Notes under the pieces: generated by a model
What the model was told of the DNA's origin: nothing
Seen by the model: only the letters and a program-made list of their open reading frames with translations
Databases searched by the model: none
In this document: positions 7,390 through 40,180 of the stretch, one piece after another
How the letters are laid out: each line of letters begins with the position of its first letter
How positions within the stretch are numbered: position 1 is the first letter of the stretch
Program-made: the position numbers and the translations under genes
Virus record (IMG/VR): IMGVR_UViG_2667527965_000003
Coordinates: 1 to 48,868 of that record
Reading direction: 5' to 3' (one strand)
Length of the DNA stretch: 48,868 bases
From: a virus
Taxonomy: Duplodnaviria > Heunggongvirae > Uroviricota > Caudoviricetes

Positions 7390-7528
7390 GTCAGATCCTC
7401 ATTTTTGAATGTAAGATCCCCGGGCCAGAGATAGCGCCCATTGGGTGTGTTTTTGGTTTTAAGTAGTTTTCCGGTGTAACTTTGGTCGGTGGCACCGGAC
7501 GTAGACCCCGCCTTGCGCGGGTTTTACG

Positions 7529-7693: not shown

Positions 7694-7814
7694 CAGGATT
7701 CCCCTTCTGTGCCAAGAGGTAACAGAGGCGGCGAATAAACGCCCCAAGAGAACTCAGTTTTACGGCCTGCTGCCGTACTGGCTTACGTGCGTAGTCAATC
7801 ATGGTCACCCTCAT
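7686..7814 (-). CDS. Small basic protein, first gene of leftward early operon (possible Kil-like)
   Basis: The track ORF start at 7889 lies inside the OL operator, so an internal Met (7814 or 7802) is more plausible; function guessed only from position. Confidence 0.25.
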   Translation of the reverse strand: MRVTMIDYARKPVRQQAVKLSSLGAFIRRLCYLLAQKGNPDV

Positions 7815-7879
7815 TTGCCCTTGTCGCCAGGCTGGCGGAACGTTTATCGGAGCAACGCAGCGCGTTGTTGATGGGATAA

Positions 7880-7897
7880 GTTTACTCATTACTAAAC
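7880..7897. promoter_or_regulatory. OL-type operator for the CI-like repressor
   Basis: GTTTACTCATTACTAAAC is the reverse complement of the OR site at 8446-8463 with one mismatch; additional TAAAC half-sites follow at 7914-7948. Confidence 0.55.
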
Positions 7898-7992
7898 CAT
7901 TCTGTAAAGTAAATAATAAACAAAATTGTTAAGTTCGTACTAAACGTATGAAGAAGGGGGGATATTTGCGGTCGGAGGGGATCTGTAGGCAT

Positions 7993-8015
7993 AAAAAAAA
8001 CCGCCATGGCGGCGG
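7993..8015 (-). terminator. Rho-independent terminator after the repressor gene
   Basis: On the minus strand a CCGCCATGGCGG palindrome is followed by an 8-nt T-tract, directly downstream of the repressor stop. Confidence 0.55.
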
Positions 8016-8035
8016 TTCAGTTATCAATAAATTGG

Positions 8036-8395
8036 TTACTTATTGCGGGAAGCCAGCAGTTCCTGGAAAAGCTTGTTGTACTTGTCGTGTTTAGCTTTGA
8101 ATTCCTGAAGAACAGCCTTCTTCTCCGAGTCTGGGAAAGCTCGGAAGTGCAAAAGCAGCTCAACCTCGTCAGCAAGAAGAACGGTATCATTGCTGGCCTT
8201 GTCAGGATGCTGCTCATCAGTATCGAGATAGCCCGAGGGCATACCATAGTCGCGCTCAATTCGTCTGGCAGCTCTTTCACCAAAGGAGGCCTTACCATTT
8301 ATCAATTGTGATAAATAGCTCTTCTCTTTTTCTGGTAGCGACTTATCGGCAAACCATGCCTTTAGCTGCTTCCTACGGATATCTGCTGTGCTCAT
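8036..8395 (-). CDS. CI/RacR-like repressor, HTH only, no S24 peptidase domain
   Basis: 119 aa from Met at 8395; N-terminal HTH-like segment (SYLSQLINGKASFGERAARRIERDYGMPSGYLD); divergent to Cro-like gene; too short for a LexA-like C-terminal cleavage domain. Confidence 0.65.
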   Translation of the reverse strand: MSTADIRRKQLKAWFADKSLPEKEKSYLSQLINGKASFGERAARRIERDYGMPSGYLDTDEQHPDKASNDTVLLADEVELLLHFRAFPDSEKKAVLQEFKAKHDKYNKLFQELLASRNK

Positions 8396-8406
8396 CTGCG
8401 TATTTT

Positions 8407-8463
8407 GATTAGTTAATGCTAAACAAGCAAATACTTGACTAAAAGGTTTAGTAATTAGTAAAC
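8407..8463. promoter_or_regulatory. OR operator region between repressor and cro-like gene
   Basis: Near-palindrome GTTTAGTAATTAGTAAAC (8446-8463) plus related GATTAGTTAATGCTAAAC (8407-8424); TTGACT -35-like hexamer at 8435-8440. Confidence 0.5.
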
Positions 8464-8492
8464 TCATCTCACACCTTACCTGGAGCGCATAT

Positions 8493-8753
8493 ATGCAACT
8501 CAAAGATTACTTATCCCAGCAGCGCGGAAACGCCAAATGGTTGGCTAAAAAGCTGGGCATTTCGATGCCGTATCTGTCTCAGATGGCCTCATCCACTTCC
8601 GCAATTTCGCCTGAGAGAGCCATCGAAATTGAGCGATTCACGAATGGAGTCGTTAACCGTGCCGACTGCCTGCCAGAGAAATGGATGCGAATCTGGCCGG
8701 AATACACCCCTGTGAACATGTGTCCTGTAGAGGGCGCCCAAAAGAGGACTTAA
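8493..8753 (+). CDS. Cro-like / YdaS-family HTH regulator
   Basis: 86 aa; ...AKKLGISMPYLSQMASS... resembles Rac YdaS; divergent from repressor across the operator region. Confidence 0.65.
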   Translation: MQLKDYLSQQRGNAKWLAKKLGISMPYLSQMASSTSAISPERAIEIERFTNGVVNRADCLPEKWMRIWPEYTPVNMCPVEGAQKRT

Positions 8754-8755
8754 TA

Positions 8756-9313
8756 ATGCAAACACTTTCTTTTCAACAGAATAACAGAGCGCCAGCAGAG
8801 CGGCTGACATTCCAGTTTCACCATGAAGAAATGTCGAGCCAAAAGGTTGATCACCGCGCCATCTGTTCTGCCGTTCGCGCGTGGGCGGCGGCTGAAGGCC
8901 GTGTCGCGGTCGCATTAATAATCCGGGAAGCGGTTGAAGAGGCTGGCCTGGAGGATATCGATACATCCGTTAATGCCGATGTGTGGAACGTGAAATTGTT
9001 CCGATGGTTAGACCAGCCAGAGAAATCGGCGGTTTACCGGGCGAACGTGGAGCAGCTGGCACCGGTAATCATCTCAGTTCTGCCGCTGGCGTACCGGGAT
9101 CGGGTTGTTAAGCACGATAACTTCGCGCTTCGCATCGCCAAGTCGGTGAAAGAGGATGCAGAGGCCATCCAGGCTGTCGTTCTCAAAGCTCCCAAACAGG
9201 AACGCTGGAAAGAGATCAGCGAAAGCATCGTTGCAAAGTGTCTCCTGGATGGGCCGGATTCAGTCGCGCCAATTATGGCGATGGTTACAACGATGCTAAG
9301 TGGAGCGATCTGA
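8756..9313 (+). CDS. YdaT-like (CII-position) regulatory protein
   Basis: 185 aa from ATG at 8756 with AAGAGGA RBS; segment ...FRWLDQPEKS...APVIISVLPLAYRDRV resembles Rac YdaT; immediately follows the ydaS-like gene. Confidence 0.5.
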   Translation: MQTLSFQQNNRAPAERLTFQFHHEEMSSQKVDHRAICSAVRAWAAAEGRVAVALIIREAVEEAGLEDIDTSVNADVWNVKLFRWLDQPEKSAVYRANVEQLAPVIISVLPLAYRDRVVKHDNFALRIAKSVKEDAEAIQAVVLKAPKQERWKEISESIVAKCLLDGPDSVAPIMAMVTTMLSGAI

Positions 9314-9314
9314 C

Positions 9315-9572
9315 ATGAACCATATCGAGTTCATCGAAAAGCATGTGCGCGAAGAGCTGATCAAACAGGGCTTCACTGTGGCGGTCGCACAGGGGGGGGC
9401 ATTCCAGGCAGTCGACATGTACAAGCGTATGTCTCAGGCCAGTCGTAAGGGGAGAATTTTTGATGATGTGTTACGCCACGCAAAGCTGTGGGCCGAGAAG
9501 CAACAGACGGCGTCCGATAAGTTTGCAGAACGCAGGGTTAAACGGAATGAGCAGCAAGCAGGGTTGTTCTGA
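9315..9572 (+). CDS. Hypothetical protein
   Basis: 85-aa ORF from ATG at 9315, overlapping the preceding stop. Confidence 0.4.
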   Translation: MNHIEFIEKHVREELIKQGFTVAVAQGGAFQAVDMYKRMSQASRKGRIFDDVLRHAKLWAEKQQTASDKFAERRVKRNEQQAGLF

Positions 9573-9646
9573 AATGGTGAAGACCGTTGTGCGTCAACAC
9601 AGCCGGTCTTCGGGTGCAATAACGTCAAGCAATTGCGGAGATAAGT

Positions 9647-10570
9647 ATGTCAAATACCGCTGAAGTTATCAAATTTCCGACTAAAACCGAGCAAGCAGGA
9701 GGTCCCATGGCCGACCTGTCCAACGGGTACACCCGGATCGCAAACGAGATTCAGAAGCTGAAACCGCGCCTGCGCATGTCAGGGCGTGAATGGCAGTGCC
9801 TGGAAGCGGTGATCTGGCTTACCTACGGATGGAACAAGAAACAGGACCGGGTTACCAACACCGTCATCGCCGGGCTCACAGGGCTGGCTGACACGCATGT
9901 TTCTGATGCGATCAGCTCTCTGGCAGAGCGTGGAATTATTTTTAGTCACAAGCAGGGCGTGATGAAAATTGTCGGTATAAATACTGACCTATCAGCCTGG
10001 ATTTTGGACAAACCGAAAACGGGAAAACTCTTCCCGAAAACGGGAAAATCCTTCCCGAAATCGAGAAAAACCTTCCCGGAAACGGTAGCCACCCAAGACT
10101 ATAACAATAACAATATTAAAAGATCATCGTCAGAGAATTCTGGCGAATCCTCCGACGACCGTCTGAAGAAGTTTTTATCAGCTCATCCTGAGGCGGTGAT
10201 TTACACCCCCAACTTCACCAAGTGGGGCACTGCAGCCGACCAGCAGTGCGCTGAGTGGATCCTCGCCCTGCTCGAAAAAGTTAAACCCTTCCCGAAGCAA
10301 CCCGTCATGGCCTCCTGGGCTAACGACGTGCGCCTGATGCGTGAACTGGACGGCCGCAGCCATCGTGAAATTTGCGAGCTATTCCAGTGGGCGAGCAAAG
10401 ACGCGTTCTGGCATACCAACATCCTCTCGCCTGCAAAGCTCCGTGCTAAGTGGGACACGCTGAGCCTTCAGCGCGATTCCGGCCGCCGGAAGAATGTCGC
10501 GAGCGCCCAGGGCATCGACTTCAACAATACAGACTGGATCAACGAGGTGTTCGATGGAAAGACTATCTGA
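9647..10570 (+). CDS. Replication initiator (lambda O-like)
   Basis: 307 aa; N-terminal GYTRIANEIQKLKPRLRMSGREWQCLEAVIWLTYGWNKK resembles phage O N-terminal domain; gene contains tandem iterons plus AT-rich tract. Confidence 0.7.
   Translation: MSNTAEVIKFPTKTEQAGGPMADLSNGYTRIANEIQKLKPRLRMSGREWQCLEAVIWLTYGWNKKQDRVTNTVIAGLTGLADTHVSDAISSLAERGIIFSHKQGVMKIVGINTDLSAWILDKPKTGKLFPKTGKSFPKSRKTFPETVATQDYNNNNIKRSSSENSGESSDDRLKKFLSAHPEAVIYTPNFTKWGTAADQQCAEWILALLEKVKPFPKQPVMASWANDVRLMRELDGRSHREICELFQWASKDAFWHTNILSPAKLRAKWDTLSLQRDSGRRKNVASAQGIDFNNTDWINEVFDGKTI
10013..10130. repeat. Putative origin of replication: 3-4 tandem 21-bp iterons plus AT-rich tract inside the O-like gene
   Basis: CCGAAAACGGGAAAACTCTTC / CCGAAAACGGGAAAATCCTTC / CCGAAATCGAGAAAAACCTTC / degenerate CCGGAAACGGTAGCC, then ACTATAACAATAACAATATTAAAAGA. 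Confidence 0.6.
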
Positions 10571-11243
10571 GCAGCTGGCGAACTGCGATCGCGAAAGCTT
10601 TCGCCGCATCGCCCATAACATGCCTGAAGCCCCGGCAGAACGCCCGCAGGTTGAGCAGACGGCCGAAATCTTCAACTCCCTGTTCAGCGCGCTGCGTGCT
10701 GCATTTCCGGCAGCAATGGCTGCTTTCCGTGAGCAGAGCGAGTTCAACGAACTGCGCCGCCAGTGGGTGATGGCATTTCAGGAGAACGGGATCACCACCA
10801 TGGCACAGGTGGCCGCAGGCATGCGGATTGCCCGCCGCCAGGAGAAGCCATTCCTGCCGTCACCCGGTCAGTTCGTTGCCTGGTGCAAAGAGGGGCGCTG
10901 CCTGCTCGGGTTCAGCGTTGATGACGTGATGACTGAGTACTGGAAATGGCGCCGCCTGGTGTTCCGGTATCCAACCAGCGAACAGTATCCATGGCCAGCG
11001 CCGGTTTTATATCACGTCTGCACTGAGCTGCGTCGGCAAAGTACGGATCGCCAGATGACCGAAAGCGAGATGCGCCAGGCCGCTGGCAAGGTCCTGGCTG
11101 GATGGGAAGAGCGCGTTGCCGCAGGTAAGCCGGTACCGCCGATCCGCCGTGCTATCGCCGCCCCGGCCAAGGCCAGCGGTCCTACGCCAGCAGAAATACT
11201 GATGGCTGAATATAAAAAACGCAAAGCAGCTGGTCTGATTTAA
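10554..11243 (+). CDS. Replication protein P-like (helicase loader)
   Basis: 229 aa from ATG at 10554, overlapping the O stop; position and size match lambda P; weak sequence recollection only. Confidence 0.5.
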   Translation: MERLSEQLANCDRESFRRIAHNMPEAPAERPQVEQTAEIFNSLFSALRAAFPAAMAAFREQSEFNELRRQWVMAFQENGITTMAQVAAGMRIARRQEKPFLPSPGQFVAWCKEGRCLLGFSVDDVMTEYWKWRRLVFRYPTSEQYPWPAPVLYHVCTELRRQSTDRQMTESEMRQAAGKVLAGWEERVAAGKPVPPIRRAIAAPAKASGPTPAEILMAEYKKRKAAGLI

Positions 11244-16741: not shown

Positions 16742-16907
16742 TATGGAAAGGGCTGAAAGAAGTCGGCCCTTTTACCCATGGTGGTAAAAATAGGGATCAT
16801 TTGAAGAAAGTTCAGGATAGTTGGCCTGTGTCAGAGAAACACATTTTAACGACTGCATAATGGGTTAAACCCGGTTATAAATACTTTTTCATTCAAGAAT
16901 TTAAAAA

Positions 16908-17690
16908 ATGAGCACAATAAATAAGCACGGACTTTCGCGTACAATACCTCCGTCCGTAAAACGATTAGTGCGGCAGAGATGTGGATTTGGATGCGTGATC
17001 TGCGGTTTTGGATTTTACGATTATGAGCATTTCGCTCCGGACTTTGCCGATGCCACAGAACACAACCCTGAAGGCATGACGTTATTGTGCTCTCAATGCA
17101 ATCAAAAACGTGCGCGTGGGCGCTTGTCAGCCCATACAGTTGCGGTCGCCAATGCCAACCCGAAGTGCCTGCAGCAAGGCTTCGCCAGTGAAATGTTCGA
17201 TTTTCACAGCGAACCTATCGAAATAAAATTCGCAGGCGTAACTTTTTATGACTGCAAGCATTTAATTGTTGTTAATGATCGCCCAATTTTATCGGTACGG
17301 CCAGCGATTGATGATAAGTCTCCCATTCTGCTTTCAGGCGTTTTTAGTGATCCTGCCGGCAGGGAGACCCTAATTATCAATGAAAATGAATGGTCAGTAG
17401 ATTCCGAATACTGGGATGTTGAGTGTGTAGGGCCAAGGATAATCATTCGAAGTTCACCGGGGCAGATAGTTCTCGTACTAAAAATGAACAGCCCTACAGG
17501 GATTGTAGTTGAACGCTTCGATATGCTTTTTGAGGGCGTCAGGCTAAGAGGGGACGAAGAGGCGCTACAGGTATGTTATGACGGTGAAAACTGGAATGAA
17601 TATGTGTGTCACAGCATAAGACATTGCAATACGGGTATAAATATCATTACGCGACCATGCGCAGCAAATGACCCGGTTTACGCTGCATAA
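16908..17690 (+). CDS. HNH-endonuclease-domain protein with unknown C-terminal domain
   Basis: N-terminal CGFGCVIC ... YEHF ... TEHNPEGMTLLCSQCNQ (Cys pairs with His/Asn typical of HNH); about 160-aa C-terminal region not recognised; low-GC gene. Confidence 0.5.
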   Translation: MSTINKHGLSRTIPPSVKRLVRQRCGFGCVICGFGFYDYEHFAPDFADATEHNPEGMTLLCSQCNQKRARGRLSAHTVAVANANPKCLQQGFASEMFDFHSEPIEIKFAGVTFYDCKHLIVVNDRPILSVRPAIDDKSPILLSGVFSDPAGRETLIINENEWSVDSEYWDVECVGPRIIIRSSPGQIVLVLKMNSPTGIVVERFDMLFEGVRLRGDEEALQVCYDGENWNEYVCHSIRHCNTGINIITRPCAANDPVYAA

Positions 17691-17796
17691 TCGTTAAACA
17701 TGAGCTACCAGAAAACCCTTTTACTTCAGCCTGTCGATTTAGCCAAAAGGCTGCCTACCATACAAGCGATATGGGAATCCCCATATCGACAGCTAG

Positions 17797-17817
17797 GGCC
17801 TCTCCGGAGGCCTTTTT
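17797..17817 (+). terminator. Rho-independent terminator after the HNH-domain gene
   Basis: GGCCTC-TCCG-GAGGCC hairpin followed by TTTTT. Confidence 0.6.
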
Positions 17818-18163
17818 CACGCCCGGTGAATAGGTGATTCGAGCATGATCGATAATACCGATCGATACAAGAATATTGATCTATGAAATCGATTATTAAA
17901 TAGACACAGAACAGCAACAAATTACCGAAGGGCACCCTCTGACGCAGACGAAATACCCTCTGTCGATAGTGACATCTTTGCCATTTATCTGGCGCCAGGC
18001 TTTCCGTACAGATATTTACGGTCGACATTTCTGACGTGAGCCTTTGTTAAAAATAACGATCACTTTTTACACGTAAGTAGCAATAAAATTTATTTAAATC
18101 AATCAGATGAATGGGCTTGCGCAGCCATGTACTTCATGTGCATACTTAAGCCAAACGAATAAA

Positions 18164-18183
18164 TACTGTTTATACATACAGTA
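18164..18183. promoter_or_regulatory. LexA (SOS) box
   Basis: TACTGTTTATACATACAGTA fits CTGT-N8-ACAG with AT-rich spacer (LexA consensus TACTGTATATATATACAGTA). Confidence 0.65.
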
Positions 18184-18201
18184 TTTTGTTGTATGGTTTA
18201 G

Positions 18202-18327
18202 ATGCTACAGAAAAAAATGAATTTTTCTTCCGGCGAACTTATTAGGAAATTTGCGCCATTTGTTATTTTGGCTCTGTGGAGTGGATTTCTCCCCGCCGGG
18301 AGAGCGTATTTGGTGATAGCAAAGTGA
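18202..18327 (+). CDS. Possible small hydrophobic peptide (41 aa), not in the ORF track
   Basis: ATG at 18202, stop at 18325-18327; MLQKKMNFSSGELIRKFAPFVILALWSGFLPAGRAYLVIAK; about 20 bp downstream of the LexA box; translation unproven. Confidence 0.25.
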   Translation: MLQKKMNFSSGELIRKFAPFVILALWSGFLPAGRAYLVIAK

Positions 18328-18336
18328 GGAGGGGAT

Positions 18337-18531
18337 GTGAGCATAGAGGTCGCCGAAGCGATTAAAACAGTCTCGGAGGGCGGTAAGTTCGTCATTACTT
18401 GCAATAATGGGGAAATTACCAGCCTGGAGCGCGTTAGGGACGATCAGCACGTTCTCTCGCTTGCTGAGTTACTCTACCTTCTTCGAGAAGCTGGGTTCCG
18501 CATTGACGGAGCGGATAGCCTACTGCCATAA
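18337..18531 (+). CDS. Hypothetical small protein (64 aa)
   Basis: GTG start with AGGAGG RBS at 18327-18332; downstream of the LexA box. Confidence 0.4.
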   Translation: MSIEVAEAIKTVSEGGKFVITCNNGEITSLERVRDDQHVLSLAELLYLLREAGFRIDGADSLLP

Positions 18532-18588
18532 TCCTCACGTCGCCTGAACAGCGACACGGAGCAGCAAAGCGCCACGGAGAAAGCTCCC

Positions 18589-19188
18589 ATGGCGCAGTTA
18601 CAACTCATCAAGCAGTCCTCAGGAATCCTGATCCCGGCCACGCCGGAGACCAGCGACTTTCTGCAATCAAAAATCAAGCTCGGCGCCGTGCTGGTGGCCG
18701 ACTTCAAACAGGTCCGTAACCCGGCCTTTCATCGTCGCTTCTTCGCTCTGCTGAATCTCGGCTTCGAATACTGGGAGCCAACCGGCGGCGCTATCTCATC
18801 CAACGAACGCAAGCTGGTGACCGGCTATGCGAAGTTTCTGGCATCGTTCGGCGGGAGCGAAACCGCGCTGCTGGATGCTGCTGAGCAGTATCTCGATCAG
18901 GTGGGCAGCCGCCGCATCACCAATGGCATCAGCCTGTGCAAATCCTTCGACGCCTATCGCGCATGGGTGACCATCGAATCCGGCCACTACGACACCATAC
19001 AGCTGCCTGACGGCATCCTCCGGAAGCATCCCCGCAGCATCGCCTTCGCCAATATGGACGAGACCGAGTTTCAGCAGCTCTACAAAGCCGCGCTCGATGT
19101 TCTGTGGCGCTGGATATTGTCGCGCGCATTCAGGGACCAGCGCGAGGCTGAGAACGCCGCCGCGCAGTTGATGAGCTTCGGAGGCTGA
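18589..19188 (+). CDS. DUF1367-like nin-region protein
   Basis: 199 aa; resembles a family commonly found in lambdoid nin regions (from memory). Confidence 0.5.
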   Translation: MAQLQLIKQSSGILIPATPETSDFLQSKIKLGAVLVADFKQVRNPAFHRRFFALLNLGFEYWEPTGGAISSNERKLVTGYAKFLASFGGSETALLDAAEQYLDQVGSRRITNGISLCKSFDAYRAWVTIESGHYDTIQLPDGILRKHPRSIAFANMDETEFQQLYKAALDVLWRWILSRAFRDQREAENAAAQLMSFGG

Positions 19189-20934: not shown

Positions 20935-21392
20935 TTCTGGAGGGCCATAATATGTGACAGCCAAACGGATAGACCGCAGCCAAAAGGCAATGCAGCAGTC
21001 ATGATGCTGCCCTGAGTCGCTATTGAGCGAGCCTGTGTAGTGACGGGTCAAGGTTCATATATCAAAAAAAGCTCCGGTAGAGCAGCGCGAACGCCAGACG
21101 CGCACCGGTTATCAGCGGCGATGATGCGACAGCGACTCAAGGGCATGAGCGTAGCCACTCCGGGAAGTGGCAAAGAGTTTACAGCCCCGCTTTAGCGAGG
21201 CTTTTCGTTTTCAAATGGTCTTACGACACCAATATCTACCAAGTAGGTGTCCGAGCCAGCGCAAACTACGACTGATGAAGCTAAAAGCAGAAACCTAATG
21301 GTCTCGTAGTCCCCCGTGCGCTGGTATGGTGGGGGAGTGAGGTAGATAATTATATTTTTTAAGCGGTAAGCTCATAAGCATGTGGCTTAATC

Positions 21393-21923
21393 CTACTTCA
21401 GCTTAATAGAAAACCCCTCCCTGGGATCTATCATCTTTATTTCGAGCAGCCCGTTTATTTTACTTGTTTTTTCACGATCATCTTTAATATCTATTAACCA
21501 GGCATTAACTGCTGCCATTACGTCTTTGCCAAATTGCTCAACGGAAAGTAACAGCGTACTGTTAAACTGGTTGCAGTGGAATCCGCCCGGACCAGAAGTA
21601 TTCTGAACAAATACAAAATCTCGCAATACATCTCTTGCGTTCTGAGAGGTGATATCACCACTTCCTTCATGTAAATAGGCGCATCGCAACGCATAGAAAT
21701 CGGAACCTGTCAGGAACACACGATCTTCTCTGTTGCCAGCTATGTTACGTGTATACGCATGTTTTAGATATTTGTTATACCAGTGTATGGTTCTTGCCTT
21801 CGAGCCTTTGTTTGGGTCATCTATTTTCCCGCAAATATCAGGAAGAGTCAGGGATATAAACAATACTGAGTACCAATTTTTGGTTTTGATAGACATATCT
21901 AGTGCTTGAATAAAATTATTCAT
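21393..21923 (-). CDS. HEPN-motif protein (candidate abortive-infection or toxin RNase), low-GC moron
   Basis: 176 aa on the strand opposite to flanking late genes; contains RCAYLHEGSG (Rx4H with following Gly); GC visibly lower than backbone. Confidence 0.45.
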   Translation of the reverse strand: MNNFIQALDMSIKTKNWYSVLFISLTLPDICGKIDDPNKGSKARTIHWYNKYLKHAYTRNIAGNREDRVFLTGSDFYALRCAYLHEGSGDITSQNARDVLRDFVFVQNTSGPGGFHCNQFNSTLLLSVEQFGKDVMAAVNAWLIDIKDDREKTSKINGLLEIKMIDPREGFSIKLK

Positions 21924-22141
21924 TTCGGCAACTCCATTTGATTAAATTACTATTTAATACAATCTAATAGAATCCAACTAAAAGTTGGTTCCAGCAACAT
22001 AATTACGTCAACTCTCTGAATTTGATCACCATTCCAGGCCCTGTAGTGGGGCATTTTTCTATTTGAGGCTCCGGGCAACACCCTTAACACGCTTTGTTGT
22101 TAATTCACCACGAGAGCCCGACCTCTACACATGGACCACCT

Positions 22142-22540
22142 ATGTCTGAACCTCTAACCATTGCTGGCGGTGTCACGTCCGCAACTATCGGAGTGACGTT
22201 CGCATCTTTGTTCCCCGAGGCAACGCCCGGCGTAATGCTGTGCGCGCTGGCTGGTGCAGCAATGTACGTTCTGACATCCGATCCACACCAACTGTGGAAG
22301 CAGTTCCTGTTCGCCGTCATCAGCTTTGTCGGCGGGGTTTTCTTCTCGGTGCCGATGGCGAAGATACTGGCCGGGGTGATTAATACCGCCCTTGGCCTGT
22401 TGCAGCCGCCGGTAAGCATCGAGGTATCCCCGAATATCGGCGCACTGGTTTCCGCTTCCATCTCTGTCGCAGTCCTGCTTCGCATCCTCGCCAAATCAAA
22501 ACGGGGGAAGATGCCGGGACTGGAGGAGGAAGGCCAATGA
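22142..22540 (+). CDS. Putative holin
   Basis: 132 aa from ATG at 22142 with several hydrophobic segments; first gene of lysis cassette; start uncertain. Confidence 0.5.
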   Translation: MSEPLTIAGGVTSATIGVTFASLFPEATPGVMLCALAGAAMYVLTSDPHQLWKQFLFAVISFVGGVFFSVPMAKILAGVINTALGLLQPPVSIEVSPNIGALVSASISVAVLLRILAKSKRGKMPGLEEEGQ

Positions 22541-26820: not shown

Positions 26821-28272
26821 GTGAACGAAAGCGAAATGAAACAACAACGCGCCGCCAATGCCAGCGTCGAACGCACCCGGATGCGTAACCTGAATTCTCT
26901 GTTTAACGGCACCAGTAACACCAAACGCCAGCGCCTGTATCAGGAGTTTGGGTACCCGCAGGAGCTCTGCTTCGATGACTTCTACCGGGCGTATCGCCGC
27001 AATGCTATAGCTGGTGCCGCAGTGACGCGCATGGTTGACGGTTGCTGGGAAGATTACCCGGAAGTTTACGAAGGCGACCAGACGAAGGATGCCACCCGAC
27101 AGACAGCGTGGGATAAGCGCACCAACAAGCTGCTCAAGCGCTGCTGGAAACAGATTAAGGGCGCTGACAAGCGTAACCTGGTTGGCCGCTACTCTGCGCT
27201 GCTGATTCAAGTCAAGGACAGCAAGCCATGGTCTGAGCCCGTTGATAAGGCGATGGTCGGCAGGCTGCAGGAACGGGCCCTTGTCCGGTTGATTCCTGTA
27301 TGGGAGGCCCAGCTCGACCCGATCAGTTACGACGAGGACCAGAACAGCGAGAACTATGGCGCTGTCAGCATGTACTCGTTTACCGAGATTCCGGTGCAGC
27401 AGCAGCGCAGCGGTCAGCCCGGGCGAATCATCAACGTTCACCCCGATCGCGTCATCATCCTGGCTGAAGGCTCGGATGACGGACGGCTTGATTCCGGCGA
27501 GTCGCTGCTGGAAGAGGGCTTCAACAAACTGCTGGACCTCGAAAAGGTGTCTGGCGGTGCTGCTGAGGGGTTCCTGAAGAACGCCAGCCGGCAGCTCAAC
27601 TTCAACTTCAGCGCCAAGACAAGCTTTACGCAGCTCGCAAGGGCGCTGGGCGTAAGCGAGGCCCAACTCTCTGAGGGAATGGATGAACAGGTTCGCCGCC
27701 TGAATGACAGCACAGACAGCGCCGTCATCATGCAGGAGGGCGATACCAGCGTGCTTTCCGTGGCGGTTGCCGACCCGGAGCCAACCTGGCGGACTGCGCT
27801 CAATGAGTTCTGCGCCACCGTGCCGATCCCTGTGAAAGTGCTGGTGGGCATGCAGACCGGCGAACGGGCCAGCACGGAAGATGCGAAGGACTGGGCCAAA
27901 ACCCGGATGAGCCGACGCAATGGCTTCCTGACCGACGTGATCACTGAGGTGGTCACCCGCTTCTGGACACTTGGCTTTATCCCTCAAGCCAGGGGTGAGG
28001 AAGTCACCGTGGGATGGTCCGATCTACTGGCACCGAGCCAGGCAGAGAAGATAGCCAACATGGATAAGCTGGCTGATGTCGCCGTTAAATCCACGAACGC
28101 GTTTGGCCGCTCAGCCATCACCGAAAACGAGATACGCGCGGCAGGCGAGCTGCAAGCCCTGCCAGAACTTGATGACGAGGTGAAGCCAGATGGCAATAAG
28201 CCAAAGCCTGACCCACTGGCCGACCCAGAATCAGAAGCCGAAGAGTCCGGTAATACCACGGTCGAAGGTTGA
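26821..28272 (+). CDS. Portal protein
   Basis: 483 aa following terminase; GTG start with GGAGGA RBS; acidic C-terminal tail. Confidence 0.6.
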   Translation: MNESEMKQQRAANASVERTRMRNLNSLFNGTSNTKRQRLYQEFGYPQELCFDDFYRAYRRNAIAGAAVTRMVDGCWEDYPEVYEGDQTKDATRQTAWDKRTNKLLKRCWKQIKGADKRNLVGRYSALLIQVKDSKPWSEPVDKAMVGRLQERALVRLIPVWEAQLDPISYDEDQNSENYGAVSMYSFTEIPVQQQRSGQPGRIINVHPDRVIILAEGSDDGRLDSGESLLEEGFNKLLDLEKVSGGAAEGFLKNASRQLNFNFSAKTSFTQLARALGVSEAQLSEGMDEQVRRLNDSTDSAVIMQEGDTSVLSVAVADPEPTWRTALNEFCATVPIPVKVLVGMQTGERASTEDAKDWAKTRMSRRNGFLTDVITEVVTRFWTLGFIPQARGEEVTVGWSDLLAPSQAEKIANMDKLADVAVKSTNAFGRSAITENEIRAAGELQALPELDDEVKPDGNKPKPDPLADPESEAEESGNTTVEG

Positions 28273-28279
28273 CCCCACG

Positions 28280-29197
28280 ATGTCGCGCAAGCCAGTCAGC
28301 AGGATGGAGCGCGATATCGAGGACCGGTATTACGCGATTAAGTCAGCCCTGAAGGCCCTGTTCGACCAGCGTCTGACCGGGCGAGAGCGAGAGGTTAACA
28401 GCCACTGCTGGCACTTCCTGTGTCACGTCAACGGCGAGGATCAGAGGCTCTACCAGGTCAACGCCGGGAAGTTCATCTACGACATGACCCCGCAGGAGCT
28501 GGCAGAGCTGCTCGAGGCGGTGCAGGGCATTCTGGATGACTACCTGCTGGACGGCGGCGAGAACAACCAGTGGGCGATGGATTACGTCGTCGCTGAGACG
28601 CAGCGCGGTACGCTGGAGGCGTTTAATAACCTCTCGCAGCAGTCGCAGGTGTACGCCAGCCAGACGACGTTACAGCAGCTTTTAAGCAGTCCCGGTTATC
28701 AAAACCAGATCGCATCCGCCAGGCTGACAACGTTCAGTGACTGGAAGGCGATCAGCGATGCCGCCCGGGCAGACCTGACAGGCATCATCACCGACGCGGT
28801 GGCGCGCGGGGTTAACCCGAGGGAAACGGCCAGCGTCATCAGTAAGCGTCTTGATGTGAGCATGTCGAAGGCCAAGACCATCGCTCAGACTGAGCAGGTC
28901 GGCGCACTGCGACAGGCACAGTGGAACGAAACTGACTGGGCTGCTGACCGGCTGGGGCTGAATACCGGCCTTCTGTGGCTGTCAGCGCTCAAGCCGACAA
29001 CTCGCCTGTGGCATGCCAGCCGGCACGGCAAGGTCTACACCACCGAAGAGGTGCGAGACTTCTACGCTGAGAACGGCAACCGGTACAACTGCTACTGCAG
29101 CCAGATCCCGGTGCTGCTTAACGACGACGGCAGCATATTCAACGAAGGGCTGGCGGAAAAGCTTGCGAAAGAACGGAAGAACTGGAAAGAAACCTGA
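28280..29197 (+). CDS. Head morphogenesis protein (Mu F-like)
   Basis: ATG at 28280; follows portal as in Mu F/SPP1 gp7-type modules. Confidence 0.5.
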   Translation: MSRKPVSRMERDIEDRYYAIKSALKALFDQRLTGREREVNSHCWHFLCHVNGEDQRLYQVNAGKFIYDMTPQELAELLEAVQGILDDYLLDGGENNQWAMDYVVAETQRGTLEAFNNLSQQSQVYASQTTLQQLLSSPGYQNQIASARLTTFSDWKAISDAARADLTGIITDAVARGVNPRETASVISKRLDVSMSKAKTIAQTEQVGALRQAQWNETDWAADRLGLNTGLLWLSALKPTTRLWHASRHGKVYTTEEVRDFYAENGNRYNCYCSQIPVLLNDDGSIFNEGLAEKLAKERKNWKET

Positions 29198-29244
29198 CCA
29201 AGATGATATAAAAAATCTATCAAAATTAACGTGGTAGATTAGAT

Positions 29245-29760
29245 ATGAGCTCTGTTACGCCAAACGAAGTTGGTTCGTACGTTCTTTCCCTTATTGGGCC
29301 AATTATTATTGGTATTGCGGCGGCAGCATTCACTGCTTATTTCGCGTTACGCCGGTTCTACAGGGAAAAGTGGTGGGAAAAGAAGCATGCAGCCTATGGG
29401 CAACTGATCGATATCCTTATCGATATAAAGTCAATATATGCTATGGCCTCGAATTATCATCAGCGCATCTATGAGGCTGAGCGAAGGTTGGAAGACGTGC
29501 CAGATTACCATTTCGATTGGAGTCGGTTTAACGACCTCCAAAAACAACTAAGAAGGTCATTTATACTGGCTCCCATATCTCTCAGCAGTAACACAGAGAA
29601 TTTATTAGATGAATTATTTTCTTTGGATGCTAGTGCAAAGGAAATGATATATGAAGAGAACTATCCAGCGCAGGCTGCGTATGCAGACATGGCAAATGAT
29701 GTCGAAGGCATCATTAGATTAATAGTTGAAGATGCCAAAACAGAATTGAGCTTCCACTAA
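29245..29760 (+). CDS. Single-pass membrane protein of unknown function (low-GC moron)
   Basis: 171 aa; N-terminal TM helix (VLSLIGPIIIGIAAAAFTAYFAL) then soluble domain; AT-rich gene between head genes; own terminator. Confidence 0.45.
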   Translation: MSSVTPNEVGSYVLSLIGPIIIGIAAAAFTAYFALRRFYREKWWEKKHAAYGQLIDILIDIKSIYAMASNYHQRIYEAERRLEDVPDYHFDWSRFNDLQKQLRRSFILAPISLSSNTENLLDELFSLDASAKEMIYEENYPAQAAYADMANDVEGIIRLIVEDAKTELSFH

Positions 29761-29777
29761 ATAAAAATACCAATTGA

Positions 29778-29797
29778 CCCGCTTCGGCGGGTTTTTT
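29778..29797 (+). terminator. Rho-independent terminator
   Basis: CCCGC-TTCG-GCGGG hairpin plus TTTTTT; same hairpin motif recurs at 37618 and 44627. Confidence 0.65.
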
Positions 29798-29828
29798 ATT
29801 GCCTGAAATTCACCAATGAGGACGCAAC

Positions 29829-31214
29829 GTGAAGCTATCCAGCATCCACGTTAAATCCCTCGCCATCAACGCCTCCAACATCTCAACGACCACCATCAAC
29901 GGCCAGAAACACTACGTCATTCGTGGTGCGGTTCCGATCGTCGATGACATCGTGATGAATGGCGGCCTGTACCCGGCTGAGGAGATTAACAACAGCTACC
30001 AGACGATGGAAGGCAAGCTGATGCCGCTGCCGCACCCGATGGTAGATGGCAAGTATGTCAGCGCCAACGACCCGCGCGCCATCAACGCTTATCACGTTGG
30101 TGCCTGGGCGCAGAACGTCAGCAAATCCGGCGATCAGGTCGTCATGGACGTTTACATCAACCAGGCTGTTGCTGAGACGAAACCTGATGGCAAGCGCCTG
30201 ATTAACCGCCTCGACGAGATGATGGCCGGCACTAATACCGACCCGATTCACCTCTCAACCGGCCTTCTCACCAACAAAGAGAAGAAGTCGGGCGAGTCGA
30301 AGGAGAAGAAGTACACCTGGATCGCCCGCAACATGCAGTTCGACCACATCGCGATCCTGCTCGACGAGCCCGGTGCCGGGACGCCGGAAGAGGGCGTTGG
30401 CATGTTCGTGAACGCTGACGGGCAGGAAGGTGAAGTTGAAACCGCCAGCCTCATCGACGCGGCGAACAGCCTTAAAGACGGACTGCTGAATAAGGTGAAG
30501 TTCTTCCTCACCCACAACTCCGACGCCTCATTCGACGAAATCTACCAGATGCTGCGCGAGGCTATCCGCGCACCGTCCGGCAGTGACGTTTATCGCTATG
30601 TGGTGACCGTCTGGCCGGACAAATTCATCTACGAAGAGGGTTCGAAACTCTTCCAGCAGAAATACCTCATCGATGATAACGCGGTAACGCTGGTCGGTGA
30701 GCCCATCGAAGTCGTGCGCAAACCCACTGAGTACGAGATTAAAACCAACGGAGAGAACGATCCGATGAAAGAACTGATTATCAATGCGCTGCAAGCCGCT
30801 GGTAAGCCGACCGAAGGCAAGTCCGACGCCGAGCTGATGGACGCATACAACCAGCTGGCAGCAGAGAAGGCGGCCGCCAAAACCGAAACGCCTGAAGAGA
30901 AGGCGGCTCGCGAAAAGGCTGAGAAAGAAGAGCGTGAGCGCGCAAATAACCAGGCGGAAGCCCCAGCATGGTTTAAGCCATTCGCCGACGATCTCGCCGC
31001 GGTTAAATCTGGCCTGACCGTTAACGCCGACAAAGAGAAGTCAGAGCAGCGCGCTGCGGTGAAAGCCAAGTTCGGCATGACCGATGTCGCGGTGAATGCG
31101 CTGGACGGCGAGCCGCTGAAAGAGCTGTTTGCTCAGTGCCAGACCTCAACCGGCCTGAATGGTGCATTCCGCCAGGCTACCAATAACCAGTCAGTCAGCG
31201 AAATGCCGGAGTAA
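29829..31214 (+). CDS. Putative scaffolding / prohead core protein
   Basis: 461 aa; GTG start; long Ala/Lys/Glu-rich C-terminal coiled-coil-like region; position before capsid genes. Confidence 0.45.
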   Translation: MKLSSIHVKSLAINASNISTTTINGQKHYVIRGAVPIVDDIVMNGGLYPAEEINNSYQTMEGKLMPLPHPMVDGKYVSANDPRAINAYHVGAWAQNVSKSGDQVVMDVYINQAVAETKPDGKRLINRLDEMMAGTNTDPIHLSTGLLTNKEKKSGESKEKKYTWIARNMQFDHIAILLDEPGAGTPEEGVGMFVNADGQEGEVETASLIDAANSLKDGLLNKVKFFLTHNSDASFDEIYQMLREAIRAPSGSDVYRYVVTVWPDKFIYEEGSKLFQQKYLIDDNAVTLVGEPIEVVRKPTEYEIKTNGENDPMKELIINALQAAGKPTEGKSDAELMDAYNQLAAEKAAAKTETPEEKAAREKAEKEERERANNQAEAPAWFKPFADDLAAVKSGLTVNADKEKSEQRAAVKAKFGMTDVAVNALDGEPLKELFAQCQTSTGLNGAFRQATNNQSVSEMPE

Positions 31215-35672: not shown

Positions 35673-36362
35673 ATGACACCAGTTAAAGAGTTTGGAGAAT
35701 GCCTTATTAGTGTCGGTGATAAGGACTACTTTTTCCGTCCGTCACTATTCGCGATGTCCAGAATTGGCGATCCTGTAAACATCGTTCAGACGTTTTACGA
35801 CCTCTGCAATGATGAAGTGGCTACTGTCATCCAGAAGGCTGCTGCATCCTACATTCATTCAGAATATGACCGTCTTCCTGAATATGTAATCAACTACATA
35901 CGGAGCGGGATACTGAGCCGCAAGGCTATCATGGCTGCGCATACAGTGCTGTCTGCGTGCTGCGATGATGACACAGGAAACCTTATTGGCTGGATGCAGC
36001 CAGGAAAAAGCCGGAAGCGTAGCTTTATGTGGCGGCAAGGTGTCATGCCGCCGCAGGATATGGTCATTATTGCTCAAAGTCTCATGATGCACGGCATTAT
36101 CGGCCAAGCTAAGTTACGCAAGCTGCAGCGGCACGAACCGAACGAGCCCACCAATGAGTTCAGGGCATTGGATTACATTATTGCCGCACGCAACCACTTC
36201 AACATCAGCAAAGAAGAAGCTGGACAGCTGACGATGACAGAGTTCCAGATGATGCTTGCCGTGAAATATCCTGAACAGAAGGGATATACCAGGGAAGAAT
36301 ACGATAGTGCGGCAGATGACTACTTTGCGCGACGCAAACGGCGGCAGGCTAAGCAGAAGTAG
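35673..36362 (+). CDS. Putative tail assembly chaperone
   Basis: 229 aa between major tail and tape measure genes; basic C-terminus; positional call. Confidence 0.4.
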   Translation: MTPVKEFGECLISVGDKDYFFRPSLFAMSRIGDPVNIVQTFYDLCNDEVATVIQKAAASYIHSEYDRLPEYVINYIRSGILSRKAIMAAHTVLSACCDDDTGNLIGWMQPGKSRKRSFMWRQGVMPPQDMVIIAQSLMMHGIIGQAKLRKLQRHEPNEPTNEFRALDYIIAARNHFNISKEEAGQLTMTEFQMMLAVKYPEQKGYTREEYDSAADDYFARRKRRQAKQK

Positions 36363-36406
36363 CCCACTCAGGTGGGCTTTAGATCTGTTATCTCGGGGAG
36401 AGGGCG

Positions 36407-36601
36407 GTGAAACCTAAGCAAACATTAACCATTAACAATTTGATACCATTCCCAAGCGAAGCGCCGAGAGAAGAGACCATAGAGTGTAATGATGTTTTTC
36501 TTGATAATTCAATGCTAGAGGAAAAAATTTCTACTCGAATAGGTTTTAGTAGATTGATTTTTGTTAATGAAATCAACTCGATCAATTCCATCTCGGAGTG
36601 A
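36407..36601 (+). CDS. Hypothetical small protein (moron cluster)
   Basis: 64-aa ORF with GTG start in AT-rich region; weak. Confidence 0.25.
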   Translation: MKPKQTLTINNLIPFPSEAPREETIECNDVFLDNSMLEEKISTRIGFSRLIFVNEINSINSISE

Positions 36602-36638
36602 ATTATCATATGCGCATACCTTTCAATAGGATGCGAAA

Positions 36639-37220
36639 ATGATTAACGAATATGATTTCGTGACAGCGGCAGGTCATATAGCTAAACATGAAGCCGGTCA
36701 CTGGCTTGCGGCGTTTAAATTAGGCTGGAACCCAAGAGGTATAGGCTTGAGAGTGCCGTCTCATGCTAAAGATCACATGGGTTATTCAGAAACAAGTCAC
36801 AAAGTCGATTTAAGCAGCATTGAGGATGTCCGGGATTACGCAAGAGGCAGGGTAAAAATTCTCTACAGTGGCGTATATGCAGAGCACTTTGACGGAAAAG
36901 ACTTTGATCACGAATCCATAATGCGTGATATGAAGCGTGGCGGCGGTGCTTATTCTGATTTCTGGAAAGCTGAAGAAATCTACTTCTTTTACTACAACTG
37001 CCTCGACATAAAGGGAACGTGGGAGCAAGAGTTTCAGCCTATTATTTGCGACGTTCAGCTCATGATCGAAATGCATTACGACTTCATCATCTCTGTAGCC
37101 AAATACGTCATGGCAAGGGCAAACTTTGTTGGTCAGAGTATAGAGGTTTCATCCTCCGACCTGATCAGGATATTCAAAAATAGCACCATTAAGCTTCCTG
37201 ATCATGACCCTCTTCGTTGA
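36639..37220 (+). CDS. HExxH-motif protein (candidate zinc metallopeptidase), moron
   Basis: 193 aa; HEAGH near N-terminus (IAKHEAGHWLAAF); low GC; inserted between tail chaperone and tape measure genes. Confidence 0.4.
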   Translation: MINEYDFVTAAGHIAKHEAGHWLAAFKLGWNPRGIGLRVPSHAKDHMGYSETSHKVDLSSIEDVRDYARGRVKILYSGVYAEHFDGKDFDHESIMRDMKRGGGAYSDFWKAEEIYFFYYNCLDIKGTWEQEFQPIICDVQLMIEMHYDFIISVAKYVMARANFVGQSIEVSSSDLIRIFKNSTIKLPDHDPLR

Positions 37221-37325
37221 GTGTGTTCCCGTTTCCGGTCGATTGAGATCAATAAATCAGCGTTTGCCGTTGCGCCTGTGCTATTCCTGGGTAGGATGTT
37301 CATTTTTACCAATGGGGATAGGGAT

Positions 37326-37613
37326 ATGAGAAAGACGATGTTGTTGTTAGCACTAAGTTGCTCATTGTCTGCTGCGCATGCAAACAGCGATATGAGATCA
37401 ACACTTCAAGCTTCTGAGAATGCAATTTGTCAGGATAACGCAAAAAAAGAGCAGTGCATTACAGCGGTTCAGAAGCTCATGTTTGCAGTCAGCAAAGTTA
37501 CTGAGCTTAATGAAAACTGCAAGAAGCCGAATGGCAATGTTGGAATTGAACAGCAATGCCAACAGTCTGAAGAAGCTATAGGCTACATAAATAGCCTGGT
37601 AAATAAACCATAA
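37326..37613 (+). CDS. Secreted Cys-rich small protein, moron
   Basis: 95 aa from ATG at 37326; signal peptide MRKTMLLLALSCSLSAAHA; several Cys; followed by terminator. Confidence 0.45.
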   Translation: MRKTMLLLALSCSLSAAHANSDMRSTLQASENAICQDNAKKEQCITAVQKLMFAVSKVTELNENCKKPNGNVGIEQQCQQSEEAIGYINSLVNKP

Positions 37614-37617
37614 CCAA

Positions 37618-37638
37618 CCCGCTCCGGCGGGTTTTTTT
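37618..37638 (+). terminator. Rho-independent terminator
   Basis: CCCGC-TCCG-GCGGG hairpin plus TTTTTTT. Confidence 0.65.
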
Positions 37639-37654
37639 ATAGCCGGAGATAATA

Positions 37655-40180
37655 ATGGCAGGCGCAGAAAATGCTGGAAGTATCGTTTATGAAGTAAGCG
37701 CCGAAGTAGCGCCTCTATTACAGGGTGGGCGTCAGGTAAACAGGGTTCTTAGCGATATTGAGTCCGCATTAGACGATAACATAAACCAGTTCAAGCGGCT
37801 TGAAACCAGTGTTAGTACCACCGCCCAAGCGGTATCTACTGCAACAAGAAGTATGGGTAATCTTCGCGGCGTTTTTGGGCAGCTTGGGTACCAGGTGCAG
37901 GACATCGCGGTTCAGTTACAAATGGGCCAAAATGCAATGCTTGTGTTCGCACAACAAGGCTCACAGATCGCTTCTATCTTTGGTCCTGGTGGCGCTGTAA
38001 TCGGTGCAATTATTGCCATCTCTGGCGCAATAGCTGGAGCGCTTCTCCCATCCCTTTTTAATTCCAAAGATGCAACACAAGAGCTTGAATCCGCCCAAAA
38101 GGCGCTTTCAGAGACTGTTGTAAAAACCGACTCAGGAGTGAGCGCTCTATCTGAAAAAATACAGCGACTAGCAGCAGTTAGTTCAGATGCTGCAAAGGCA
38201 CAGATAGCCGTAGCCATGACTGATGCGCAACGAGCCATCAGCGCTGCAGGAAGCGTCATCTCTGACCAAATCAATGATTTGGGAACCTGGCGTAACAGCA
38301 TGTCAGCTGCTGAAAGTCAGTTAACCACGCTCGAAGGTAAAGGCGTTGATGTTTCGAAGATGCTAAAAGATCTTGGCGGAAGCTATGAAGGAAATATTGC
38401 TGGCATCAATATTCTGAACAACGTAACCAATTCAATGTCCGAGGCGTTCGGAATAACACAGACTCAGGCTGTTGGCCTGGTAAAAGTATTCCGAGACCTC
38501 CAAAAAGAGCCTACAGCAGAAAACATGCAGGCCGCAGCATCTGCCCTTTCCTCACTCAGTGAGCAAACTGGTTATGCAAACCCCAAGCTTAATGAGTTGA
38601 CCAATGTCGTCAACCAAAACTATGTCTCTGCGGCAAATGCAACAGATGCTATCAACGTTCTTAAAGGCGCTCTTGACAACCTTACCGGCGCAACAGAGTC
38701 ATCCCAGAAGGCATTATCGGGCAATGCGGAGCAATTAAATAAACTGGTTGAGGCTGCAAAAAATGAAGCCGCAACTGTCGGATTTAGTACCCGACAGCGA
38801 GCTAAATATGTGGCTGGTCTTTTAGGGGCAACAGATGCTGAATTGAAGTCTCTTGATGCAAGCTATGACCGAATAGAATCATACGAGAACGAGCAGAAGG
38901 CGCTTAAAGAGCAAGAAGGAGAGCAAAAGAAAGCAGCATCGGAAGCTGAGGCAGCGGCTAAACGGTCAGCCGCTGCGCAGCAACAGGTGGTTAATCAGCT
39001 GGAACAGTTATCAGAAAAATATCAGATAGCCGTTCTTGAACAGCAAGGTATGGGCCGGGAAGCTGCGGTCCTGGCTGCTCAACAGCAAATGGGGGCAGCT
39101 GCCACCAAACAGCAGGTGCAACAGGCGGGAGATCTTGCTGGCAAGTTGTATGATGTTGCCCAAGCCACAAAAGCAGCACAGGAAGCGGAGCAGGCTAGAA
39201 AGCAATCGAGCCAGAACTTCTCCAACCTTCAAGGCCAGGCATCGCCAGTAGCAGCAGTAGATAACCAGTTTCAGCAGCAGATGGATCAGCTCAACCAATA
39301 TGCCATCTACTATCCCCAGAAAATAGCTGAAGTCGAAGCTACACGGGCAGCGATAGAGGATCAGTACCGGCAAAAGAGGGTGGCAGCCATGTGGCAAGAA
39401 TGGCAGCAGCAAAGCACGATAAACGCTCTTGCCGCTTCAGCTGTAGAGTCTTTGCAAAGCGGCGCAACAAATGCCATCACAGGGTTGGTAAACGGCACGC
39501 AAAGTCTTTCCGAGGCGTTTGCTAACCTTGGCACGTCAGTAATTAACGGCATTGTGAGCAGTCTCGTACAGATGGGTACACAGTGGGTTATGTCCGCAGC
39601 GATGGGGCAGGCTGCGCAGACCGGCGCAATAGCGGCGAACCAGGCGGCGGCAACTGCGGCGCTTGCGGCATCCACTTTGGCCGGAACAGCTGCCGCCACG
39701 ACGCTTCTCGCATCGTGGTCTCCCGCTGCGATGGCTGCTAGTATCGCAACATCTGGTGGTGCGGCAACAGCTGGGTTGGCTGGTTATAACGTTGCAATGG
39801 CTGGCTCGAAAATAATGACCGTCGCCGGTGCCCGCGAACATGGCGGCCCGGTATCGGCCAGCTCCATGTATCGTGTGGGCGAGGGTGGTAAACCTGAGAT
39901 TTTCAAAGCCAGCAATGGCAGCCAGTACATGATCCCCGGAGATAACGGTCGCGTCATCAGTAACCGGGATATCGGCGGTGGTGGTGGCGGGTTCAATTAC
40001 AGCCCGACTATCCAGATCAACGGTAATCCGGATGAAAAAACCATAGCTCTGGTAGAGGCGGCCGTGGCTCGCGGTGGTAAGCAGGTATATCAGCAAATAA
40101 GTGGGGATCTTGCCTCAGGGAAAGGAAACGTTTCTAAAGGCCTGCAAAGCGGCTGGACCGCTAAAAGGAGGATTGGTTAA
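37655..40180 (+). CDS. Tail tape measure protein
   Basis: 841 aa; Ala/Gln-rich, hydrophobic Gly-rich segments (GAVIGAIIAISGAIAGA); position before tail tip genes. Confidence 0.75.
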   Translation: MAGAENAGSIVYEVSAEVAPLLQGGRQVNRVLSDIESALDDNINQFKRLETSVSTTAQAVSTATRSMGNLRGVFGQLGYQVQDIAVQLQMGQNAMLVFAQQGSQIASIFGPGGAVIGAIIAISGAIAGALLPSLFNSKDATQELESAQKALSETVVKTDSGVSALSEKIQRLAAVSSDAAKAQIAVAMTDAQRAISAAGSVISDQINDLGTWRNSMSAAESQLTTLEGKGVDVSKMLKDLGGSYEGNIAGINILNNVTNSMSEAFGITQTQAVGLVKVFRDLQKEPTAENMQAAASALSSLSEQTGYANPKLNELTNVVNQNYVSAANATDAINVLKGALDNLTGATESSQKALSGNAEQLNKLVEAAKNEAATVGFSTRQRAKYVAGLLGATDAELKSLDASYDRIESYENEQKALKEQEGEQKKAASEAEAAAKRSAAAQQQVVNQLEQLSEKYQIAVLEQQGMGREAAVLAAQQQMGAAATKQQVQQAGDLAGKLYDVAQATKAAQEAEQARKQSSQNFSNLQGQASPVAAVDNQFQQQMDQLNQYAIYYPQKIAEVEATRAAIEDQYRQKRVAAMWQEWQQQSTINALAASAVESLQSGATNAITGLVNGTQSLSEAFANLGTSVINGIVSSLVQMGTQWVMSAAMGQAAQTGAIAANQAAATAALAASTLAGTAAATTLLASWSPAAMAASIATSGGAATAGLAGYNVAMAGSKIMTVAGAREHGGPVSASSMYRVGEGGKPEIFKASNGSQYMIPGDNGRVISNRDIGGGGGGFNYSPTIQINGNPDEKTIALVEAAVARGGKQVYQQISGDLASGKGNVSKGLQSGWTAKRRIG

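Follow-up and report, generated by a model that had tools for sequence, protein, structure and literature searches.

The window analysed here, that is, the whole stretch of 48,868 nucleotides, carries in its head-gene module a plus-strand open reading frame (ORF) that begins at the first ATG past an in-frame stop and is bordered by a MuF-like minor head gene and a DUF2213 gene (Table 1). In the initial annotation this ORF was described as an AT-rich gene of 171 aa interrupting an otherwise GC-rich run of portal, MuF, and scaffold genes. Both parts of that description hold: the ORF has a GC content of 0.422 and a GC3 of 0.43, well below those of the TerL, portal, MuF, DUF2213, decoration-like, and capsid genes around it (GC 0.55–0.59, GC3 0.58–0.78), and it is inserted exactly between the MuF and DUF2213 genes. 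The same offset recurs in every homologous locus examined, with GC contents of 0.36–0.44 for genes of this family versus 0.48–0.59 for MuF and the flanks.

Profile searches identified the neighbouring genes as TerL (PF17289), portal (PF06381), MuF (PF04233), DUF2213, a 143-aa protein, and a DUF6260 major capsid protein. The DUF2213 gene matched PF09979 (E = 1.5e-4), phrog_760 (E = 1e-184), and, at E = 1e-4, phrog_530, a head maturation protease family. The longest MuF ORF shares 83 nt with the portal gene (28190–28272); gene callers applied to identical DNA chose a later start, giving proteins of 297–305 aa, and the true start is thus probably downstream of 28190.

Table 1. Features at the MuF/DUF2213 junction of the window, in order of position
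Feature	Positions	Strand	Remarks
MuF-like minor head gene	28190–29197	+	left border of cargo site; PF04233 E = 1.3e-10, phrog_758 E = 7e-139
Candidate extended -10 element TGATATAAA	29204–29212	+	41 nt 5' of the ATG
Moron ORF	29245–29760	+	171 aa; member of phrog_17948; under purifying selection
Predicted transmembrane helix	29272–29349	+	residues ~10–35; hydropathy, invariant columns, AlphaFold2 helix
Juxtamembrane motif RRFYREKWWEKK	29350–29385	+	residues 36–47; most conserved part of the family
Predicted cytoplasmic helical domain	29386–29757	+	completes four-helix bundle; middle variable
Intrinsic-terminator-like hairpin and T-run	29776–29799	+	right boundary common to most cargos
Conserved leader TTGCCTGAAATTCACCAATGAGGACGCAAC	29800–29828	+	ribosome-binding site of the next gene (DUF2213)
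DUF2213 prohead protease/scaffold-like gene	29829–31214	+	right border of cargo site

A hypervariable cargo site between MuF and DUF2213

From 534 IMG/VR loci matched by MuF we took 80 whose MuF proteins were 86–96% identical to that of the window; both borders were present in 78. Among these close relatives, the junction varied in length from 17 bp, where it was empty (three loci), to 1451 bp, and the 80 cargo ORFs that it held fell into 33 clusters. A relative of the window gene occupied only one of the 78 junctions. The junction is a hypervariable cargo site, and because it is empty or otherwise filled in phages with such similar head genes, the gene is dispensable for head assembly. Some slots, which correspond to 29198–29828 in the window, carry two cargos in tandem.

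Few of the alternative cargos were recognisable. One encodes an HNH homing endonuclease and another, on the opposite strand, a Rap1a type VI secretion system (T6SS) immunity protein; the remaining cargos had no Pfam or PADLOC match, and no recognisable defence systems were found at the junction. With a homing endonuclease and a T6SS immunity gene among its cargos, the site does not serve phage defence exclusively. Other related phages behaved similarly—in Klebsiella phages the junction is filled by unrelated ORFs (74, 162, and 104 aa), and related prophages of E. coli carry other genes at the same junction, including a Rap1a/Tai immunity protein, or very little.

Despite its rarity among the nearest relatives, the gene recurs at this position over considerable evolutionary distances. 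Using the juxtamembrane motif of the protein (below) as a search pattern for scans of IMG/VR and of genome collections, we recovered 80 loci from IMG/VR, about 65 of which have a relative in exactly the MuF/DUF2213 slot, at identities from 81% down to 32%. The contexts read for three subfamilies (63%, 52%, and 40% identity) were likewise all in this slot. The gene is tied to the MuF/DUF2213 site over long times. Its immediate surroundings are more fluid: an identical 171-aa allele, together with the adjacent MuF gene, was found joined either to Terminase_6C or to Terminase_3 and to different head genes (L205 versus L206–L207). The occurrence of one allele in different terminase and head backgrounds indicates that the cassette is passed on by recombination within a mosaic module; in the three loci just named, the mosaic exchange around it is recent. 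The E. coli of assembly GCA_001419925.1 is one carrier of the identical allele.

Signals flanking the gene

The initial annotation had assigned the gene a terminator of its own, and a hairpin followed by a T-run is indeed present downstream, with the stem-loop GACCCGC-TTCG-GCGGGT. The element is not specific to this gene, however, since most cargos of the site share it. A GC hairpin with at least five T residues ends 114 of 128 distinct junctions, comprising all 61 with the moron gene and 53 of the 67 with other cargo, whereas empty junctions lack it. Because it also closes other cargos, the terminator belongs to the site and not to the moron gene alone. Across distinct loci of homologues, a hairpin and T-run follow the gene in 50 of 53. 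The hairpins of the 114 junctions come in 41 variants, which include fully compensated stems (CCCGC/GCGGG, GGTCGC/GCGGCC, GGCTGC/GCAGCC, and CCCAGC/GCTGGG). Behind the terminator, the leader ATTGCCTGAAATCCACCAATGAGGAC is kept in most of these 114 junctions whatever the cargo. Terminator and leader ATTGCCTGAAATCCACCAATGAGGAC together may serve as the right-hand recombination anchor for cargo exchange.

Upstream of the gene, a promoter-like element is shared by many members of the family. A TGn followed by a hexamer with at least four of six matches to TATAAT lies at positions -42 to -33 in 34 of 50 distinct upstream regions of homologues, and 30 of these 34 hexamers match at five of six positions; shuffled upstream regions gave a mean of 6.7 and a maximum of 15. 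With a stricter -10 pattern the counts were 22 of 50 against 3.3 in shuffles. The hexamer of the window, TATAAA, is without the conserved final T. We found no convincing -35 element upstream of the gene, and a simple consensus scan of the window region returned no plus-strand promoter. The element TGATATAAA fits an extended -10 promoter, whose activity is inferred. As most other cargos have no such element, it travels with the moron gene.

The proposal that this gene is a moron is thereby strongly supported. It is an extra gene between two genes that in some relatives are adjacent, separated only by the empty 17-bp junction, and the same junction is without it in 77 of 78 close relatives; its GC and GC3 are unlike those of its surroundings, in the window and in homologous loci; it is followed by a factor-independent terminator whose stem is maintained by compensated variants across loci; and it is preceded by an extended -10-like element. 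It is a self-contained accessory cassette in a lambdoid siphovirus prophage of E. coli. As a genetic element it is of an ordinary kind, and its product is a member of a large unstudied family.

A large family without a described function

Full-length homologues of the protein form 31 clusters at 90% identity, the named ones all from Enterobacterales and mostly from Enterobacteriaceae; E. coli has a copy with 99% identity. When 1.84 billion representatives were searched with a profile, the family grew to 1022 clusters (50% identity) at E ≤ 1e-3, nearly all of whose matches are 150–200 aa long and aligned end to end. Between alleles with 75–81% protein identity, we counted 0.05–0.14 non-synonymous and 0.59–0.84 synonymous differences per site, and dN/dS was at most 0.07 wherever it could be computed. 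On this comparative sequence evidence, the ORF is a real gene.

The only named family matched was phrog_17948 (PHROGs v4), for which a function annotation is absent. The window protein matched it over residues 17–170 (E = 8.1e-21), as did all 73 of 73 distant relatives (best E = 2.5e-62). Pfam and NCBIfam yielded no meaningful family for the window protein, for 22 close relatives, or for the 73 distant ones. One relative bears the UniRef name DUF4760; this assignment was rejected, as PF15956 matched neither the 22 close relatives (E up to 10) nor the 73 distant ones (E up to 1). A tblastn search of the window protein against 50,697 GenBank phages gave no match, and two temperate phages were recovered only with more distant relatives as queries. 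Comparison with BFVD returned nothing significant, and literature searches by accession, phrog identifier, and DUF name returned nothing relevant on the family. HepS (PMC13043305) is unrelated.

Across homologous loci, median identity to the window was 52% for the moron protein, 50% for portal, 59% for DUF2213, 80% for MuF, and 74% for capsid. These values do not clearly set the gene apart as faster-evolving than its neighbours: portal has a similar median (50%), though MuF reaches 80%.

Predicted architecture and topology

Hydropathy, the structural model, and charge bias agree on the single N-terminal transmembrane helix that had been claimed for the protein. The Kyte-Doolittle profile peaks at 2.22 over residues 13–31, and by the same measure no second segment is sufficiently hydrophobic to span a membrane. 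Within the helix, small residues are conserved (G23, A27, T30, and A31). The juxtamembrane segment that follows has the consensus RFYxEKWWEKK and is almost invariant in the family, with F38, E41, and W44 invariant or nearly so across the 73 distant members, even at 20% identity. The C-terminal helix (DAKxELKF) is conserved as well, and residues 61–105 and 114–156 are variable.

An AlphaFold2 model built with the family alignment (pLDDT 82, pTM 0.69) has one long helix at residues 6–81, against which helices at 92–108, 115–137, and 142–167 pack to form a four-helix bundle. The window protein has no lysine or arginine before the hydrophobic helix and RRFYREKWWEKK directly after it. This asymmetry is general: lysine and arginine are more numerous in the 15 residues behind the helix than in the whole N-terminal tail in all 64 of 64 members (median 5 versus 0). 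By the positive-inside rule, such a bias points to an N-out/C-in orientation and hence to a cytoplasmic bundle. We therefore predict that the protein crosses the inner membrane once, exposing about 10 residues outside the cell and placing a four-helix bundle in the cytoplasm; the RFYxEKWWEKK stretch is predicted to be amphipathic and to lie at the inner leaflet.

Fold matches of the model were generic helical bundles, with Csx28, the accessory membrane pore of Cas13b, at rank 39; Csx28 and the 1TM effectors of CBASS count among the closest known systems. Over residues 38–79 (29356–29481 in the window), the family profile has a weak PDB match to C-heptad-repeat constructs of HIV gp41 (E = 3.6e-4), which probably reflects a resemblance of Trp-rich heptads and not homology.

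Distant relatives occupy varied accessory sites

Outside the MuF/DUF2213 slot, relatives of the gene were found in several unrelated settings. Serratia phage OS31 and Enterobacter phage CobraSix carry a relative in the early-left operon, a short way upstream of xis and int; four viral contigs have one immediately after lysozyme and Rz, ahead of terminase. Two Mu-like prophages of Vreelandella maris QX-1 have a relative between the Mor/GemA region and the endolysin/holin genes; the two prophages carry different alleles of the family at the same position in one genome. On chromosomes of distant bacteria the relative is a lone AT-rich gene. Two of five such distant chromosomal relatives are beside defence-associated genes, one next to an EcoP15I-like type III restriction subunit and the other next to a HerA-type ATPase, and two to three of the five neighbourhoods are metabolic.

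No partner gene is conserved across the contexts of distant relatives. With all relatives in typical accessory sites and no conserved partner, the family is a mobile single-gene module that resides mostly in temperate phages. A further arrangement was seen in a Geopsychrobacteraceae metagenome-assembled genome (OY762430), where a 510-aa ORF is present four times over positions 1226–10800, in alternation with small unrelated cargo genes, among them a distant relative of the window protein. The three DDE-transposase Pfam hits among the scanned neighbours, which were not assigned to individual loci, likely stem from three of the four copies.

Comparison with known exclusion genes and cargo hotspots

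HK97 gp15, an inner-membrane protein, is reportedly produced by the prophage and prevents entry of DNA. The window gene resembles it in being a single small gene among late structural genes, in late-operon orientation and with an inner-membrane product (predicted here), and a terminator is found 3' of gp15 (annotated in NC_002167) as it is behind the window gene. The two differ in that gp15, of 62 aa, is encoded between the genes for tail chaperone and tape measure, whereas the window protein has 171 aa and a cytoplasmic bundle and is encoded in the head module; an hhalign comparison gave a probability of 0.4%, that is, no homology. Nor was homology detected by hhalign to SieA (0.9%) or SieB (0.1%) of P22. 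These two proteins are also prophage-encoded at accessory sites, where they serve to exclude superinfecting phages, and SieA is, at 164 aa, an inner-membrane protein of similar size. Unlike the window gene, sieA is transcribed opposite to the late genes, from a mapped promoter.

The i-spanins (Rz-like proteins) were considered as a further candidate class and rejected, because the family is predicted to be N-out/C-in (64 of 64 members) and not N-in/C-out with a periplasmic coiled coil. We saw no embedded or adjacent ORF for a lipoprotein (o-spanin) at the moron locus, and spanins of the phage group are already encoded close to its lysis genes.

The junction itself invites comparison with the P2/P4 hotspots of antiviral systems, in which unrelated cargo alternates at fixed junctions of similar prophages (Rousset et al. 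2022, PMC9122126). As in those hotspots, many unrelated cargos alternate at a fixed junction between conserved genes. Here, unlike there, the site is in the head module of lambdoid siphoviruses and its cargos are mostly single small ORFs without known function.

A possible role against incoming phages, and alternatives

Exclusion, immunity, and virulence functions are known to be encoded by morons in the structural operons of prophages. Our best guess, offered tentatively and with slightly more doubt than belief, is that the protein is expressed from the prophage and has an anti-phage effect. On this proposal, the gene would be transcribed in the lysogen from its own promoter, and the terminator would keep that transcript out of the head genes and so insulate them, while late antiterminated transcription would read through. 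From its place at the inner membrane, on the cytoplasmic side, the protein would act against incoming phages in one of two ways. It could block DNA entry (superinfection exclusion), or the variable bundle could sense a phage product and cause the membrane helices to assemble into a membrane-damaging complex (abortive infection); the two modes cannot be separated here. Function or oligomerisation would reside in the conserved membrane helix and juxtamembrane motif, with specificity conferred by the variable bundle. A few distant members weakly match the PADLOC models for "1TM effector" and Csx28, which, together with the defence-gene neighbours on two of five distant chromosomes, hints at a defence role. 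In PADLOC-DB v2 the window protein itself matched only PDC-M09A (E = 0.026), and no family was common to more than three of the 73 relatives. Against the proposal count the lack of similarity to SieA, SieB, gp15, and PADLOC families, the generic fold matches, the imperfect -10 hexamer with no -35, the other kinds of cargo at the site, and the metabolic neighbourhoods on distant chromosomes; as the gene is oriented with the late operon, late lytic growth would yield its product too.

The late-operon orientation also suits a different and rather improbable explanation, namely that the protein is a lytic-cycle accessory made mainly from the late transcript and of no service to the lysogen, adjusting processes at the inner membrane while virions are produced, such as lysis timing through holin or antiholin partners or short-term exclusion of secondary infection as by Imm and Sp in T4. 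Several relatives are indeed close to lysis genes—directly after lysozyme and Rz in the four viral contigs, and beside M15 endolysin and 3TM holin genes in the Mu-like prophages—and the window protein has an N-terminal membrane helix followed by a helical domain, a layout common among lysis proteins. Yet the position behind the lysis genes is a classic location for morons in its own right, occupied for example by bor in lambda, and other relatives reside in the early-left operon beside xis and int. The phages in question already have a full lysis cassette upstream of terminase, 77 of the 78 nearest relatives are without the moron gene, and the predicted N-out/C-in topology is the reverse of that of an i-spanin or a T-type holin of T4. 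A lysogenic-conversion factor with no bearing on phages, giving, for example, immunity to membrane toxins (colicin, T6SS, or contact-dependent) or tolerance of envelope stress, is an alternative to which we would assign only a small chance. The gene belongs to a class, the AT-rich morons of prophages, that often encodes host-fitness factors, and other prophages have the Rap1a T6SS immunity gene at the very same site. The one match in this direction within the family, to Colicin_immun (E = 0.0094), is however confined to a single member and falls below threshold; members of the family occur in distant phyla and phage types, and no toxin partner is conserved among them; and its domain is predicted to be cytoplasmic, whereas immunity proteins of the Rap1a type are periplasmic.

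Two other explanations concern the position of the ORF and its reality. Its placement between the portal/MuF and protease/scaffold genes, kept in homologues down to 32% identity, would be expected of a head-assembly factor, such as a membrane anchor that starts portal or prohead assembly in the manner of T4 gp40. This is nearly excluded by the relatives with MuF proteins 86–96% identical whose junctions are empty or hold unrelated genes, and by the distant homologues that lie outside head modules altogether. A chance ORF in an AT-rich spacer, for which only the weak Shine-Dalgarno sequence in the window speaks, is refuted by full-length homologues in more than 1000 clusters, by dN/dS values of at most 0.07 with synonymous sites near saturation, and by the confident AlphaFold2 model.

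Should the moron protein block phages, it would be a compact membrane defence encoded by a single gene, whose sharply delimited motif lends itself to mutagenesis, and dozens of other small cargo genes could be sought at the MuF/protease junction; otherwise it would be one more anonymous prophage membrane protein. The wider proposition—that phrog_17948 is a new, widespread single-gene anti-phage family of temperate phages and the junction, in these lambdoid Enterobacteriaceae prophages, an undescribed, terminator-closed cargo/defence hotspot comparable to those of P2/P4—we consider unlikely, if well short of far-fetched. The family is in any case large, conserved, uncharacterised, and distributed across distant bacterial groups, and the combination of a cargo hotspot with a sharply conserved motif makes it a reasonable experimental target.

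The prophage contains three other islands of low GC (0.41–0.475), at 16800–18600, 21000–22200, and 36000–37800. Their ORFs are at 16908–17690 (plus strand), 21393–21923 (minus strand), and 36639–37613 (plus strand, just before the tape-measure gene), and these islands may be further morons.
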